Positions 2,775 to 33,928 of a stretch of 64,000 nucleotides of DNA are shown here, one piece after another. The stretch is taken from positions 19,037 through 83,036 of the forward strand of contig DULN01000002.1 in assembly GCA_012840355.1 (NCBI GenBank). The letters run 5' to 3'. The translations under genes were made by a program, and so were the position numbers. The notes under the pieces are model-generated. The model did no database searches. It was not told where the DNA came from and worked only from the letters and a program-made list of their open reading frames with translations. This DNA comes from Clostridiales bacterium (GTDB taxonomy: Bacteria; Bacillota; Clostridia; Oscillospirales; CAG-272). Positions within the stretch are counted from its first letter, which is position 1. Each line of letters opens with the position of its first letter.

Positions 2775-4019
2775 ATGTCGGAGCTTGAAAACTATATTGC
2801 CGGATTATGTTGTGACGCAAAGGAGGCGTCTCGAAAGATAGTGGGGCTATCCACTGCCAAAAAGAATGCGGCGCTTTACCGCATTGCCGACACGCTTGAG
2901 CGTTCGGCGGGCGAGATTGAAAAAGCGAATGAAATTGACCTTGTAAACCCCGCTGTGCCACCGAAGATGCTCGACAGGCTCAAGCTTGGCGAGGACCGGG
3001 TGCGTGCTGTCGCCGCGGCGGTGCGCGAAGTCGCAGCTCTTCCTGACCCTGTCGGCGGTGGCGAACGCTGGGTGCGCCCGAATGGGCTTATAATAACGCG
3101 GGAGCGGGTGCCGCTCGGAGTGGTCGCGATTATATACGAAGCGCGCCCGAATGTGACGGTCGACGCGGCGTCGCTATGCATAAAGACCGGCAACGCCGTG
3201 GTGCTTCGCGGCGGCAAAGAAGCGATAAACACCAACCGTGTGCTTGTACGGCTGATGCGCGAGGCGCTTGAGGCGGAAGGGATACCCGCCGACGCCGTGT
3301 CGCTTGTCGACGACGTCACGCGCGAAGGGACGGCGATACTTATGCGGCAGCGGGGGCTTGTCGACGTGCTTATACCGCGCGGCGGAGCCTCGCTTATAAA
3401 AAGCGTTGTAGAGAACGCGAAAGTGCCGGTTATTGAAACCGGCGCGGGCAACTGCCACGTCTATATAGACAAATCCGCTGACATTGAGATGGCGGTGAAA
3501 ATCGCGGCAAACGCAAAAGTTTCAAGGCCGTCGGTCTGCAACGCCGCTGAAACCTTGCTGGTGCATAAAGACGTAGCGCGCGAGTTTTTGCCGAAGTTTG
3601 CAGAGGCGGTCTCGCCGTGGAATGTCGAGCTGCGCGGCTGCGGGCGCACGCGCGAAATTCTCCCAGGCATCAAAGAGGCGACAGAAGAGGACTATTACAC
3701 GGAATACAACGACTATATCCTCGCGGTAAAAGTCGTCGACAGCATAGACGAGGCGATAGCGCATATAAACAAGTACGGTACGATGCACAGCGAGGCAATT
3801 GTGACGCGCGAGCTTGAGGCGGCGGAAAAGTTCAGGCGCGAGGTCGACGCGGCGGCAGTGTATGTAAACGCATCGACGCGCTTTACCGACGGCGGTGAGT
3901 TCGGCTTCGGTGCGGAGATAGGAATATCGACTCAGAAACTGCATGCGCGCGGCCCGATGGGGCTTGCCGAGCTGACGACCGTCAAATATTACGTCTTAGG
4001 CAGCGGGCAGGTGCGCTAA
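2775..4019 (+). CDS. proA: glutamate-5-semialdehyde dehydrogenase (gamma-glutamyl phosphate reductase)
   Basis: 414 aa with a ProA-type aldehyde dehydrogenase sequence, including the catalytic-Cys block VCNAAETLLVH. Upstream are a TTGCTA...TATAAT promoter-like pair and SD GGGGAAAGAG. No proB is adjacent. Confidence 0.95.
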   Translation: MSELENYIAGLCCDAKEASRKIVGLSTAKKNAALYRIADTLERSAGEIEKANEIDLVNPAVPPKMLDRLKLGEDRVRAVAAAVREVAALPDPVGGGERWVRPNGLIITRERVPLGVVAIIYEARPNVTVDAASLCIKTGNAVVLRGGKEAINTNRVLVRLMREALEAEGIPADAVSLVDDVTREGTAILMRQRGLVDVLIPRGGASLIKSVVENAKVPVIETGAGNCHVYIDKSADIEMAVKIAANAKVSRPSVCNAAETLLVHKDVAREFLPKFAEAVSPWNVELRGCGRTREILPGIKEATEEDYYTEYNDYILAVKVVDSIDEAIAHINKYGTMHSEAIVTRELEAAEKFRREVDAAAVYVNASTRFTDGGEFGFGAEIGISTQKLHARGPMGLAELTTVKYYVLGSGQVR

Positions 4020-4109: not shown

Positions 4110-5879
4110 TTACAAGCCATTCCCATTTTTCGGGGGCATTAGAGCGTATTTGCGGGCGTACTCGTTGTAGCGCTCGATAAATGCCAGGCTGCTGCTTTTT
4201 ATGTCGCTGAGATAGCTGTGAAGCCCAAGGCTGTCTTTCTGGGTTTCAATAACGCAGCCCGCGATATTCGAGCAGTGGTCGGCGACCCGCTCGAGGCTGG
4301 TAAGTATGTCCGAGAGCACGAATCCCGCCGCGATAGAGCACTCGCCATGCTGCAACCGCACGATATGACGGGAGCGCAGCTGCTCGCGAAGCATGTCCAC
4401 AACTTGCTCAAGCGGCTCGACGAGCGAGGCGGTATCGATGTCGTTATTAATAAATGCATTAATCGCGAGGTCGACAATCTCGGTGACGGCGGCGCATATG
4501 ACCGAAAGCTCCTGTTTTGCGGCGTTCGAGAAAGCAATACCTTTTTCGCGGATTTCCTCTGCCGACTCGGTGAGGTCGACCGCGTGGTCGGATATTCTCT
4601 CGAGGTCGCCTATAAGGTGCAAAAGCTTTGCCGACTCGGTGTGGTCTTTGTCTGTAAGCGAGTGGGCGCTAAGCCGGACGAGGTATGTGCCGATTTTGTC
4701 TTCAAGGTCGTCGACCGACTGTTCATCCTTGCGCACATTAGCCGCGGTCTCGTGGTCATATGCTGTAAGCAGCGAAATTGCGGACTTTATGGAGCGCGCG
4801 GCTATGCTTGCCATCGACTCGGTGACGCTGCGGCAGCGGTCAATAGCTATGGAGGGAGTAGCCATTAGACGCTCGTCAAGCTCCTTTATTTGTTCGGGCG
4901 CAGAAGTTTCGGGCACAATTAAATGCGCTATTCGCGTGAGCAAGTTAGAGCCGGGCAGTATCAAGACACTAGTAAGAATATTAAACATTGTATGGACAAA
5001 AGCGATGCCAGCGGGGGTTGAGGCACGGTCGTAAAACGCAAAATCGAACATCGCGTTGGCGGCTGTGATGACTGAAAGCCAAATAACCGTGCCGAGAACG
5101 TTGAACGTAAGGTGCACGATCGCGGCGCGCTTGCCGTTTTTGTTTGCGCCAATCGACGCGAGCATCGCGGTCACGCATGTGCCGATGTTTTGCCCCATTA
5201 TAATAGGAATCGCCACAGAGTAGGGGACTTGTCCGGTAGTCGAAAGCGCCTGCAGGATACCGACTGAGGCTGAGCTCGACTGGATGATCGCCGTGAATAT
5301 CGCGCCTGCAAGAACGCCTAAAATCGGGTTTGAAAAAGCGATAAGGATATTGCGGAACTGTGGCACATCCCGCAGACCGGAAACTGCGCCGGACATGATC
5401 TCCATGCCGTACATCAGCGTCGCAAAGCTTAAAAGGATTATGCCAATGTCCTTTTTTTTGCCTGTTTTGAAAGCCATGTACATAATAAGGCCGATAAGCG
5501 CTAAAATGGGCGTAAACGAAGAGGGCTTTAAAAGGCTAATAAAGAAGCTGTCGCCCTTTATCCCGCTAAGGCTTAAAACCCACGCGGTGACGGTTGTGCC
5601 GAGGTTAGCGCCTATTATGACGTTAGTCGCTTGCGAGAGCGTCATAAGTCCCGAGTTGACAAAGCCGACGACCATAACGGTGGTAGCCGACGACGACTGG
5701 ATTACTGATGTGACGCCAAGCCCCGTGAGAAACCCGGATATGCGGTTTCCTGTCAGCTTCGAAAGCAGCCTTTTTAGGCTTTTCCCGGCGCTTTTCTCAA
5801 GCGCCGAGCCCATGACCGACATGCCGAACAAAAAAAGGCAAAGCCCGCCAAGAAGAGTCAAAAAGTCGAAAAAGTCCAT
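4110..5879 (-). CDS. Na+/phosphate cotransporter family protein with C-terminal PhoU-like repeats (YjbB/NptA type)
   Basis: The N-terminal half has the Na/Pi-cotransporter repeats (GANLGTTVTAW, GQNIGTCVTA). The C-terminal half has two PhoU-like helical repeats (..ERISDHA.., ..ERVADHC..). I moved the start to ATG 5879 (MDFFDFLTLLGG), which has GGAGGA upstream. The ORF-track start 5960 remains possible. Confidence 0.88.
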   Translation of the reverse strand: MDFFDFLTLLGGLCLFLFGMSVMGSALEKSAGKSLKRLLSKLTGNRISGFLTGLGVTSVIQSSSATTVMVVGFVNSGLMTLSQATNVIIGANLGTTVTAWVLSLSGIKGDSFFISLLKPSSFTPILALIGLIMYMAFKTGKKKDIGIILLSFATLMYGMEIMSGAVSGLRDVPQFRNILIAFSNPILGVLAGAIFTAIIQSSSASVGILQALSTTGQVPYSVAIPIIMGQNIGTCVTAMLASIGANKNGKRAAIVHLTFNVLGTVIWLSVITAANAMFDFAFYDRASTPAGIAFVHTMFNILTSVLILPGSNLLTRIAHLIVPETSAPEQIKELDERLMATPSIAIDRCRSVTESMASIAARSIKSAISLLTAYDHETAANVRKDEQSVDDLEDKIGTYLVRLSAHSLTDKDHTESAKLLHLIGDLERISDHAVDLTESAEEIREKGIAFSNAAKQELSVICAAVTEIVDLAINAFINNDIDTASLVEPLEQVVDMLREQLRSRHIVRLQHGECSIAAGFVLSDILTSLERVADHCSNIAGCVIETQKDSLGLHSYLSDIKSSSLAFIERYNEYARKYALMPPKNGNGL

Positions 5880-12001: not shown

Positions 12002-12514
12002 ATGCTTGAAGAGAAAAAAATGCTGCCTGTCGCGATCGGCTGCGACCACGGCGCATATGAGCTAAAAGAGCAGCTTAGGCTGCACCTTGAAGAGAAGGGG
12101 ATACCCTATATCGATTTTGGCACCTTTTCGCCCGAGTCGGTGCATTACCCGATATATGCCGACGCGGTGTGCAAGGCAATCCAGCGCGGCGAGTGCGAGC
12201 GCGGCATTTTGCTTTGCAGCACGGGCATAGGCATGAGCATTGCGGCGAACAAGCACCGGGGCATCCGCGCGGCGGTTTGCAGCGATACCTACAGCGCGCG
12301 CTTTACAAGGCTGCACAACGACTCGAACGTCCTTTGCCTTGGAGCGCTGGTAGTTGGCCGCGGGCTCGCGTTTGATATTGTCGACGCCTTCCTCTCCACA
12401 GAGTTTGAGGGGGGCCGGCATGCCGTGCGCGTGAATATGATAAACGAGCTTGAAAAATCTTGGGAAAAAGAGCCCACCGACGACGCGCCGGCCTGCTCCA
12501 GAGAGCCGAGCTAA
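12002..12514 (+). CDS. rpiB: ribose-5-phosphate isomerase B
   Basis: RpiB/LacAB family blocks VAIGCDHGAYELK and GILLCSTGIGMSIAANK. SD GAGGTGA lies 5 nt upstream of ATG 12002. Confidence 0.92.
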   Translation: MLEEKKMLPVAIGCDHGAYELKEQLRLHLEEKGIPYIDFGTFSPESVHYPIYADAVCKAIQRGECERGILLCSTGIGMSIAANKHRGIRAAVCSDTYSARFTRLHNDSNVLCLGALVVGRGLAFDIVDAFLSTEFEGGRHAVRVNMINELEKSWEKEPTDDAPACSREPS

Positions 12515-12580
12515 GACGGCAGCAATCCCCTTAAATAATTGCCCGAGCGGCGCAAAGCTGCATATAATAAATGAGGTTTT

Positions 12581-12630
12581 GCGCGCCACCTTCGCGCCCC
12601 TCCGTTCGGCCGATGTGGCGCGCTTATTTT
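12581..12630 (+). terminator. terminator-like hairpin downstream of rpiB
   Basis: Perfect 9-bp inverted repeat GCGCGCCAC (12581-12589) / GTGGCGCGC (12615-12623) followed by TTATTTT. Confidence 0.6.
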
Positions 12631-12657
12631 GGGTAAAACCCCGGTTGACTGATGCGG

Positions 12658-12704
12658 CCCGCCCGCTTGTGCGGCGTTGCGCGAGGCGGGTTTGCGATTT
12701 TTTT
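12658..12704 (+). terminator. second rho-independent terminator
   Basis: CCCGCC (12658-12663) / GGCGGG (12685-12690) stem with an inner CGC..GCG pair, followed by TTTGCGATTTTTTT. Confidence 0.65.
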
Positions 12705-12829
12705 GGGCAAAATTTTGCGGGGAAGGTATAAAATCGGGAAAAAGCGGTAAGCTATATGTCCATAGAGCACACAAAAAATTTCGCCCTAATGTAAATTATT
12801 GTGGATGACGAAAAAATTTTAAAAACTAC

Positions 12830-12858
12830 TTGAAATTATAATAATTTTGTATTATAAT
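12830..12858 (+). promoter_or_regulatory. near-consensus sigma-A promoter driving the rpsJ leader / S10 operon
   Basis: TTGAAA (12830-12835), a 17-nt AT-rich spacer, then TATAAT (12853-12858). An AT-rich UP-like region lies upstream. The predicted TSS is near 12865. Confidence 0.75.
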
Positions 12859-12864
12859 AGAAAA

Positions 12865-13254
12865 GCTTGATATGCGATGAAGCGGGAGGTTGCCCGGTGG
12901 CACATGCTGGAGCTTTCTTGGCATGTGCCTGGCTGTTATGAGCCGGCTGGGGGAATTTCCGTGGAGTATGTCCGGACGGCGCGAAGCCGACTGCATAGGG
13001 CAGTCTGCCGCGTTAAGACGGGCGAAGGACCGTGATCCCGCGCGTCGGGTGCTTGGTTGCGCGCGCTAAATGGCAGCCGCGCTCGGAGCTATCCTCCGGT
13101 AAACGGGCGGATTTCCCCGTGCGGTGTCGCCTATATGGCGCCCGCGTCGAAAGGCGCGGCGTTATTTTAATGCAGGGCAAAGAAACACCCGGGCGAGTGT
13201 AGAGACGTCCCGCCCCGAAAATTATCTTTGGAAATAATTTAAGGAGGCAACCAA
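12865..13254 (+). ncRNA. unclassified ~350-nt structured RNA / long 5' leader of the S10 operon
   Basis: There is no credible ORF here. The segment is GC-rich with at least 9 local hairpins. Two long-range closing helices (12882-12887/13208-13213 and 12890-12897/13189-13196) enclose it. It also contains an internal GAAA-tetraloop hairpin plus U tract, and an AU hairpin abutting the rpsJ SD. See findings. Confidence 0.6.
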
Positions 13255-13566
13255 GTGGCAGTCAAAGAAAAGCTGAGGATCAAACTGAAAAGCTATGACC
13301 ACGTCCTTATCGATCAGGCGTGCGAGAAGATTGTCGAGACCGCAAAGCGCCACGGCGCTTCGGTTTCGGGGCCGATCCCGCTGCCGACCGAGAAGGAAAT
13401 CATAACGATCCTCCGCGCGGTCCACAAGTATAAGGACAGCCGTGAGCAGTTTGAACTGCGCACCCATAAGAGGCTTATCGACATCATTAGGCCTAACCAG
13501 AGGACAATTGACGCGCTTATGGGCATCGAGCTCCCTGCCGGCGTTGAAATAGAGCTTAAGCTCTAA
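13255..13566 (+). CDS. rpsJ: 30S ribosomal protein uS10
   Basis: 103 aa with the conserved uS10 sequence. GTG start with SD AAGGAGG (13241-13247). It is the first gene of the S10 cluster. Confidence 0.97.
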
Positions 13567-33175: not shown

Positions 33176-33204
33176 TTGACAATGGGCGCTTTTTGTGGTA
33201 TAAT
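33176..33204 (+). promoter_or_regulatory. sigma-A promoter of rplJL
   Basis: TTGACA (33176-33181), a 17-nt spacer ending in TGG (extended -10), then TATAAT (33199-33204). Confidence 0.8.
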
Positions 33205-33210
33205 CAAAAA

Positions 33211-33394
33211 TCGAGCCGAAGACAGCCGGTTGCCGGCGCACTATTGCGCGGCGTAAATCCAGCCGAGGTGAACAAATCAATACACGCACGGATATATTAT
33301 TCCGTGTTATGATAGATTTTTGTTCTCCCGGTGCTGCGGCAACCGGGAGTTTTTGTGTTGGCTAATAAATTTTGCCACAGGAGGTGCAAAAGCC
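33211..33394 (+). promoter_or_regulatory. ribosomal protein L10 leader (autoregulatory 5' UTR with attenuator)
   Basis: A ~185-nt leader lies between the promoter and rplJ. It contains a terminator hairpin CTCCCGGT (33325-33332) / ACCGGGAG (33342-33349) plus TTTTT. Position and architecture match the Firmicute L10 leader class. I did not verify the family by alignment. Confidence 0.65.
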
Positions 33395-33928
33395 ATGCCA
33401 AGCGAAAAGACATTGGCCCTGAAAAAGGCACAGTGCGAGGCTTTGGTAGGAAAACTTCAGACAGCTGTGTCGGGCGTGATTGTCAACTATCAGGGCATAA
33501 CGGTTGAGCAGGATACCCAGCTCCGCAGCGAGATGCGCAAGGCAGGGGTTGAGTATAAGGTATATAAGAACACCCTCACCGAACGTGCCTTTGACGCGGT
33601 GGGCTTTTCCGAGCTGAAGCCTTTGCTCACCGGTATGAATGCGCTGGCAATAAGTCAAAACGATCCCGTTGCACCCGCGAAGATTCTTAAAGAATACGCG
33701 GAAAAGATCCCGACATTTGAAATCAAAGCCGGCTTTGTAGAGGGCAGGATCCTCGACCAGAAGGGTGTGCTTGCGCTTGCCGAGATCCCGTCGAAGGAGA
33801 CCTTGGTCTGCAAGATCATGCTCAGCATGCAGTCGCCGCTCTACAAGCTCGCATATGCGCTGCAGGCTATAATCGACAAGTCGGGCGAAGCGCCCGCAGA
33901 GGCCGCAGCCGAACCTGCCGCCGAATAA
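33395..33928 (+). CDS. rplJ: 50S ribosomal protein uL10
   Basis: I trimmed the start from ORF-track 33320 to ATG 33395 (SD AGGAGGTG). uL10 sequence. Confidence 0.95.
   Translation: MPSEKTLALKKAQCEALVGKLQTAVSGVIVNYQGITVEQDTQLRSEMRKAGVEYKVYKNTLTERAFDAVGFSELKPLLTGMNALAISQNDPVAPAKILKEYAEKIPTFEIKAGFVEGRILDQKGVLALAEIPSKETLVCKIMLSMQSPLYKLAYALQAIIDKSGEAPAEAAAEPAAE

Follow-up and report, generated by a model that had tools for sequence, protein, structure and literature searches.

A divergent and enlarged S10 ribosomal-protein leader upstream of rpsJ in a Clostridiales bacterium, with a kink-turn-like junction and a conserved 3' module

In the 64 000-nucleotide stretch of contig DULN01000002.1 (Clostridiales bacterium, assembly GCA_012840355.1) analysed here and referred to as the window, rpiB (Pfam LacAB_rpiB) ends at position 12514 and rpsJ (Ribosomal_S10) starts with a GTG codon at 13255, followed on the same strand by rplC, rplD, rplB, rpsQ, rplN, rplX, rpsK and rplQ. 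The gap between rpiB and rpsJ, to which an earlier note made from the sequence alone had drawn attention, is real, as is the near-consensus sigma-70-type promoter that the note placed within it (Table 1), and the listing of open reading frames (ORFs) agrees with the note that none with a Shine-Dalgarno (SD) sequence accounts for the region. The predicted transcription start near 12865 lies 3-4 nt 5' of the first conserved nucleotide of a structured leader RNA, and the same TATAAT-N9-UGAUAUGC spacing is found in the closest relatives among the matches listed (five loci). No other rpsJ promoter was seen on the plus strand between 13170 and 13255. The segment 12868-13025 of this RNA is, with near certainty, a divergent and enlarged member of the S10 ribosomal-protein leader of Firmicutes/Clostridia (RF03136), and the RNA as a whole is modular, consisting of a sensor (kink-turn, P1 and P2), a variable region, a terminator, a distal hairpin and an SD region.

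RF03136 matches positions 12868-12993 with 31.2 bits (E = 2.3e-4) in an E-value scan of 12500-13320, and the match spans the full Rfam model (positions 1-81) with a 51-nt insertion in the first hairpin. The family, S10-Clostridia, corresponds in essence to the Firmicutes S10 leader reported by Yao et al. (2007) and was described with 1294 examples and 13 base pairs showing significant co-variation; its assignment as a ribosomal-protein leader is published, and the ligand was not determined there (Eckert & Weinberg, 2020; PMC7247131, supplementary Table S1 note f). The RNA that the earlier note called unclassified is thus RF03136 in its 5' 160 nt. The score is below the gathering cut-off of the family (35.1 bits), apparently because of large insertions at both hairpin apices, and a gathering-threshold scan of the whole window returned no match except an L10 leader at 33198-33364. 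At the orthologous site upstream of rpsJ, however, the cut-off is passed by 18 of the 20 relatives tested (38-56 bits). The confident Rfam hit from cmscan that the earlier note had named as evidence against an unclassified RNA is therefore missing in the window itself and present in these relatives.

A wider comparison used 160 rpsJ loci, taken from the matches listed in genome and metagenome scans. The conserved 5' block GCGAUGAAGCGGGAGG lies upstream of rpsJ and on its strand in 127 of the 160. The window contains all of the strings that are conserved in the family (GCGAUGAAGCG... at 12874-12889, ...UUUCCGYGGAGUAUGUCCG at 12956-12974 and ...CGGGCGA at 13019-13025), and its RNA immediately precedes rpsJ and shares its strand, at a place where the orthologous sites of relatives belong to the family. 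The leaders are of two types, 113 being long (Clostridia-type) and 15 short (Bacilli-type, 113-138 nt). Clostridia-type leaders have a median length of 281 nt (interquartile range 257-306, maximum 528), and the 390 nt of the window rank sixth of 113, so that the length, which the earlier note regarded as much greater than that of typical Firmicute ribosomal-protein leaders, is indeed large but not unique. The best S10 identity to the window among the matches listed is 81%; no sister species is thus available for comparison, although closer relatives may exist, and no close relative with which the insertions or lineage-specific conservation could be tested was found among these matches.

The window shares with RF03136 its position and strand upstream of rpsJ, the strings GCGAUGAAGCGGGAGGUUGC, AAUUUCCGUGGAGUAUGUCCG and CGGGCGA, and the P1 and P2 hairpins, and it differs from the family in its score and in the size of both hairpin apices. 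The P1 helix is supported by co-variation: in 99 non-redundant sequences, on which all pair counts of the 5' module are based, each of the seven pairs of P1a is formed in 98-99 cases, with changes of pair type at six of the seven. These sequences are fitted better by a continuous 7-bp register than by the RF03136 drawing, which shows P1a with a bulged G. The P1 apex of the window measures 57 nt and contains, at 12899-12945, two hairpins (12899-12929 and 12930-12945); the corresponding apex has a median of 13 nt in Clostridia-type leaders (maximum 34) and is 35-51 nt long in the Bacilli type. The P2 hairpin is also present (UUAAGACGGGCGA in the window, UUUAAACCGGGCGA in the family), with an inserted irregular hairpin of ~44 nt (12978-13014) in place of the 5-11 nt loop of the relatives. 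The alignment made by cmscan placed P2 on the nearer GCGAA hairpin at 12970-12993, without the conserved CGGGCGA; the GCGAA-loop hairpin (12973-93) is probably part of the insertion inside P2. A hairpin inserted in the P2 loop is found in one other locus. Both apical insertions are lineage-specific. An origin of the insertions as repeats or mobile DNA was considered and rejected, both sequences being unique in the window and among the 160 loci. The minimum free-energy (MFE) fold of 12865-13027 alone contains a C (canonical) helix, a 6/3 internal loop, P1a, P1b and both apex hairpins.

The 5' end of the leader, around P1a, reads in sequence as a consensus standard kink-turn (k-turn). This motif is defined by a 3-nt bulge, G·A/A·G pairs, a C helix closed by a C-G pair and an NC (noncanonical) helix (PMC5061560), and the two strands of the window (UGC-GAU-GAA-GCG, bulged, and CGU-GGA-GUA, opposite) contain the 3-nt bulge, the tandem G·A/A·G pairs and the C-G closing pair. 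None of the 99 sequences departs from G at 1b, A at 2b, G at 2n and A at 1n, or from the C-G closing pair -1b·-1n; L1 is G in 98 and GAGUAUGUCCG of the non-bulged strand is nearly invariant. The base at 3b varies (U 54, A 38, C 5, G 2); with 3n it forms U·G in 54 sequences and A·G in 29. The 3' strand of the C stem overlaps the 5' arm of P2 by 3 nt (12970-72), and a long C helix and P2 are thus alternatives. These features show a 5' module homologous to RF03136, with a kink-turn-like junction, P1 and P2. A literature search found no report of a k-turn or of a ligand for the S10 leader, which is not proof that neither has been published.

One close comparison is with Kt-7 in helix 7 of 23S rRNA, whose 3b·3n pair is U·G and which is bound by uL24 (PMC5061560). 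Both belong to the standard simple k-turns: the bulge measures 3 nt, G·A/A·G pairs are present, the closing pair is C-G and the C helix is short (3 bp). At 3b·3n, U·G predominates in both (54 of 99 leaders and 92% of natural Kt-7). The topology, however, is permuted: in the rRNA a loop caps the C helix, whereas in the leader it is the NC helix (P1) that is capped and the C helix is formed from the 5' end of the RNA. The flanking sequences show no statistically significant similarity. Mimicry of rRNA at the level of sequence was rejected as evidence and kept as a lead, both for a resemblance to the 5' region of 23S rRNA (CGAUGAAG...GGAGAUUUCCG) and for one, in C. difficile (GAUGAAGCGAAAG...AUUUCGUGGAGGUCCGA), to the hairpin with GAA and GGAG close to nt 700-724 of E. 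coli. In block-wise Smith-Waterman comparisons of real rRNA loci with dinucleotide shuffles, neither the H5-H8 junction nor the nt ~700-724 hairpin gave similarity beyond chance (p = 0.03-1.0), and the GAA-helix-GGAG motif, which occurs one to three times per rRNA locus versus 0.6-0.7 times in shuffles, is not rare in the latter. The flanking-helix form UGAA-G...U-GGAG occurs three times in E. coli 23S rRNA (positions 3700-3724, 4207-4233 and 5127-5153 of the rrn locus used; nt ~700, ~1207 and ~2127), the second and third sites presumably coinciding with the kink-turns Kt-46 and Kt-77/78. One of the rRNA records, NZ_CP078512.1, is labelled as a Stutzerimonas stutzeri plasmid, and the 5' end of its 23S gene is 100% identical to what is presumably a Bacillus subtilis-type sequence; the record is probably a mis-assigned or contaminant contig.

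Downstream of the variable region, the window contains a hairpin that resembles an intrinsic terminator, with a 7-bp stem (six G-C pairs), a GAAA loop and the tail CGUUAUUUUA. A terminator-like hairpin followed by a U-run is found in 70 of 85 non-redundant Clostridial leaders, compared with 11.5 on average and at most 17 in shuffles. Its position is conserved, the U-run starting a constant 22-23 nt before the ACAC hairpin described below. Directly 5' of the terminator the window has a CGCC-UAUAU-GGCG hairpin (13128-13140); 16 relatives have GGCG-UAUAU-CGCC before the terminator, with the same loop and the strands of the stem swapped. A candidate antiterminator is provided by the 3' arm of P2, in which CGGGCG (13019-24) can pair with CGCCCG (13139-44), overlapping the 5' arm of the terminator. 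Across the family, complementarity to the P2 region is stronger by ~1.4 kcal/mol for terminator 5' arms than for shuffled arms.

Beyond the terminator-like hairpin lies a distal hairpin, GAA-ACAC-NCGGNNNN-GUGU, that is conserved across the family; the module formed by the two occurs in most Clostridial rpsJ leaders. The Clostridia-type plan comprises variable hairpins, the hairpin with its U-run, often an AUG, nine variable bases, the GAA-ACAC-NCGGNNNN-GUGU element, a lineage-specific hairpin or box and the SD. A covariance model of this 3' module, built from 84 relatives with the window left out, matches window positions 13159-13208 with 38.7 bits (E = 4.5e-8), which is the sole match in 64 kb (next best 11 bits). 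Of the held-out loci of the Clostridia type, the same model finds most, at a site shortly before rpsJ; it gives no match in any of the 15 Bacilli-type loci. In the distal hairpin the pair 29-40 is AU in 52 sequences, GU in 21 and GC in six and is unpaired in none; the next pair is an invariant C-G. No Rfam family was matched by this stretch in the E-value scan of 12500-13320.

The element ACACCCGG lies inside P1, the first hairpin, in 15 of 15 short leaders and in one of 113 long ones, indicating that it has changed place between the two leader types. The P1 apical loop in six Bacilli-type loci reads CCGG-CCGC-UUUGCCAUGG, and the Clostridial module reads CCGG-UUUUUCUAUG in columns 1-14 of its alignment. 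Since UUUGCCAUGG and UUUUUCUAUG are similar and both stand beside CCGG, the U-run and AUG may be more than the tail of a terminator. Translation of a leader peptide from the conserved AUG that follows the U-run was rejected: 55 of 85 leaders have a start-like codon, none has an SD, and an in-frame stop falls within 13 codons in 39 of the 85. At the site of the SD-proximal A/U hairpin of the window, the loop of which is CUUUGGA, relatives have a lineage-specific hairpin or a GCCCGCC box. The sequence UCUUUGGAAA in this hairpin looks vaguely boxA-like and is not conserved in relatives, among which no conserved boxA-like element was seen.

Table 1. Positions of the leader features and the promoter in the window.
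Feature	Position	Strand	Details
Sigma-70-type promoter	12830..12858	+	TTGAAA-17-TATAAT; 11/12 consensus positions
Kink-turn, 5' (bulged) strand	12868..12881	+	C-stem (U)GAUAUGC 12868-75; bulge GAU 12876-78; G(1b)A(2b) 12879-80; A(3b) 12881
P1	12882..12962	+	P1a 7 bp GCGGGAG 12882-88 / UUUCCGU 12956-62; P1b 12893-98 / 12946-51
Kink-turn, non-bulged strand	12963..12972	+	G(3n)G(2n)A(1n) 12963-65; C-stem GUAUGUC 12966-72
P2	12970..13025	+	GUCCG 12970-74 / CGGGC 13019-23, then conserved GA tail
Variable GC-rich region, several hairpins	13026..13141	+	Sequence and length vary among relatives
Intrinsic-terminator-like hairpin, candidate attenuator	13142..13168	+	CCGCGUC-GAAA-GGCGCGG (13142-13159), CG, UUAUUUU (13162-13168)
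Conserved 3' module	13159..13208	+	U-run, AUG (13170-72), N9, GAA, ACAC (13185-88), loop CCGGGCGA (13189-96), GUGU (13197-13200)
SD-proximal A/U hairpin, SD and start	13219..13257	+	13219-25 / 13234-40; GGAGG 13243-47; rpsJ GTG 13255-57

Autogenous control of the S10-spc-alpha cluster by transcription attenuation is the most likely function of this leader, and the chain of events set out here is judged somewhat likelier to be right than wrong when taken as a whole. A cluster-encoded ribosomal protein present in excess over rRNA would bind the kink-turn/P1/P2 module and keep the 3' arm of P2 (CGGGCG) within P2, allowing the downstream terminator to form and transcription to stop near 13170. When the protein is absent, the P2 3' arm would instead pair with the 5' side of the terminator (CGCCCG), resulting in read-through into rpsJ. 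The distal hairpin would be present only in read-through transcripts, where the same regulator would probably contact the RNA a second time and affect translation or the stability of the mRNA; in leaders of the Bacilli type the equivalent element is part of P1. The 5' motif adjoins the SD in Bacilli-type leaders, which have neither terminator nor 3' module, suggesting translational control, whereas in the Clostridia type it lies 220-520 nt upstream and is accompanied by a terminator, which suggests attenuation and makes direct occlusion of the SD unlikely. Autogenous control of the S10-spc-alpha unit, one of the roles proposed in the earlier note, is the accepted reading of the RF03136 family; the uS10/NusB-type variant of that proposal is unsupported because of the lack of a conserved boxA-like element among the relatives.

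The cluster downstream includes rplD, rplB, rpsQ, rplX and rpsK. By analogy with Kt-7, uL24 is the leading guess for the ligand, since its rRNA site is a similar standard k-turn, with uL4 and other cluster-encoded proteins as alternatives; uL4-type logic, with attenuation and a second operator, is possible. A more specific proposal, considered unlikely, is that these leaders are bipartite kink-turn regulators, in which a permuted mimic of 23S Kt-7 (the uL24 site) would gate the attenuator and the ACACCCGG hairpin, located at the P1 apex in Bacilli, would have moved ~150-300 nt downstream to a position behind the terminator in Clostridia and would act there as a second operator for the same protein. 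If this were true, the leaders would exert two-level control analogous to that by E. coli uL4 but independently evolved, and the insertions of 57 nt and ~44 nt would make the window copy the most elaborate of them.

Several observations weigh against the assignment of the window to RF03136 with a protein-gated attenuator. No protein has been demonstrated to bind any RF03136 member (PMC7247131), and the family score of the window stays below the cut-off. Three pairs of the C helix are universal and 7 bp are possible in ~70% of the 99 sequences, with no compensatory change because the 3' strand is invariant. The U-run of the window is interrupted (UUAUUUU) and separated from the stem by 2 nt, so that termination may be weak. 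Pairing between P2 and the terminator 5' arm shows no species-specific co-variation, matched and permuted combinations being equal (permutation fraction 0.40). The role given to the distal hairpin is a guess. Finally, the full-length MFE fold uses long-range helices in place of the homology-constrained structure (-174.3 versus -164.2 kcal/mol).

These long-range helices, 12882-87/13208-13 and 12890-97/13189-96, were proposed in the earlier note to close the whole domain, and their strands are perfectly complementary (6/6 and 8/8). They would make the whole ~350 nt a single domain, a large structured RNA specific to this lineage, and besides their use in the MFE fold their energies rank first or second of 84 leaders, pointing either to a lineage-specific feature or to a by-product of the 59.5% GC content, which makes chance complementarity plausible. 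As a conserved feature, however, the closure does not hold, since the helices compete with the conserved P1, consuming the 5' strand of the co-varying P1a/P1b, and no co-variation was detected across the 84 leaders (duplex energies of -7.2 kcal/mol for matched versus -7.0 to -7.1 kcal/mol for permuted combinations; permutation fractions 0.13-0.24). Moreover, the 5' part would fold into P1 as soon as it is transcribed, and there is no close relative among the matches listed. A single closed domain is thus quite improbable. Fold energy alone is weak evidence in this region, the z-score of 12865-13254 being -2.5 for the plus strand and -5.0 for the minus strand; the better value of the reverse complement, although all of the homology evidence is on the plus strand, is a caution for GC-rich leaders in general. 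Most of the nine local helices listed in the earlier note pair as described there (9/9, 5/5, 7/8, 4/4, 5/5, 6/6 and 6/6), the single mismatch being one that the note had itself declared, and two needed correction: 13102-06/13115-19 was off by one, the actual pairing being CGGG 13104-07 with CCCG 13116-19, and 13121-31/13137-45 consists of two 4-bp segments with an internal loop.

The bracketing of a highly structured RNA by a promoter and a terminator-like hairpin could also reflect an independent, stable small RNA of ~300 nt that runs from the 12830-58 promoter to the 13142-68 terminator and acts in trans, with read-through into rpsJ being incidental, and an attenuated leader would in either case build up as a discrete species. 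The tie of the motif to rpsJ in 127 of 160 loci, always directly upstream and on the same strand, the Bacilli-type versions that lack a terminator and adjoin the SD, and the extension of the conserved 3' module past the terminator into a stretch in which no other rpsJ promoter was seen (13170-13255) leave very little probability for such an RNA. The arrangement, with a conserved sensor ahead of a terminator, also resembles a riboswitch, in which the kink-turn/P1/P2 module would bind a small molecule or ion tied to growth state and switch the terminator; kink-turns are common in the architecture of riboswitch aptamers (PMC4316175, PMC5061560), and a protein ligand has not been demonstrated for the leader. 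The element is, however, tied to the ribosomal-protein cluster only and was published as a ribosomal-protein leader, like other autogenous leaders (PMC7247131); its conserved core is small (~80 nt, two hairpins), and the terminator is missing from the Bacilli-type versions. A riboswitch is accordingly regarded as highly unlikely, and autogenous attenuation by a ribosomal protein is retained as the preferred function.

The E. coli S10 leader provides two-level autogenous control (PMC10931766), through uL4-mediated, NusA-dependent attenuation and translational repression. In E. coli as in the window, the S10 operon is preceded by an extended, structured leader that includes a Rho-independent terminator, and another element lies close to the SD. 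No homology in sequence or structure was seen, however, and the window leader has no Rfam match beyond RF03136; the E. coli leader is reported as restricted to Gammaproteobacteria (Fu et al., 2013). The L20/infC leader (PMC1865079) and the L10 leader (RF00557) are similar in that the 5' untranslated region of a ribosomal-protein operon contains a structure that binds a protein and, after it, an intrinsic terminator. Their sensor structures are unrelated, and the S10 leader has an extra conserved hairpin after the terminator, which, together with the terminator itself, is left out of the Rfam model of RF03136.

An example of RF00557 is itself found in the window, at 33198-33364 on the plus strand (51.6 bits against a cut-off of 44), upstream of an ORF at 33320-33928 and with a terminator hairpin of its own. 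This makes two ribosomal-protein leaders in the window, the L10 leader lying far from the S10 cluster. In the upstream half of the rpiB-rpsJ gap (12515-12830), two hairpins are followed by U-runs, 12581-12621 by UUAUUUU and 12680-12696 by AUUUUUUU, and these are probably tandem rpiB terminators. A promoter-like TTGCCC-18-TATAAT is present at 12539-12568, directly after the rpiB stop codon.

For annotation, the window illustrates that a genuine S10 leader with expansions at both hairpin apices escapes a strict Rfam scan at the gathering score, and the ~16-kb S10-spc-alpha cluster of this bacterium thus has a recognisable regulatory leader and not an orphan RNA. The window itself holds a divergent member of a known family, and the interesting leads apply to that family at large: the invariant kink-turn signature, the module of terminator plus hairpin outside the Rfam model, and the presence of ACACCCGG either inside P1 or downstream, almost never both. 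These three leads, none of which is specific to the window, may point to cluster-encoded k-turn-binding proteins, with uL24 as the first candidate, and they make the question of which protein, if any, binds the Firmicutes S10 leader more testable.

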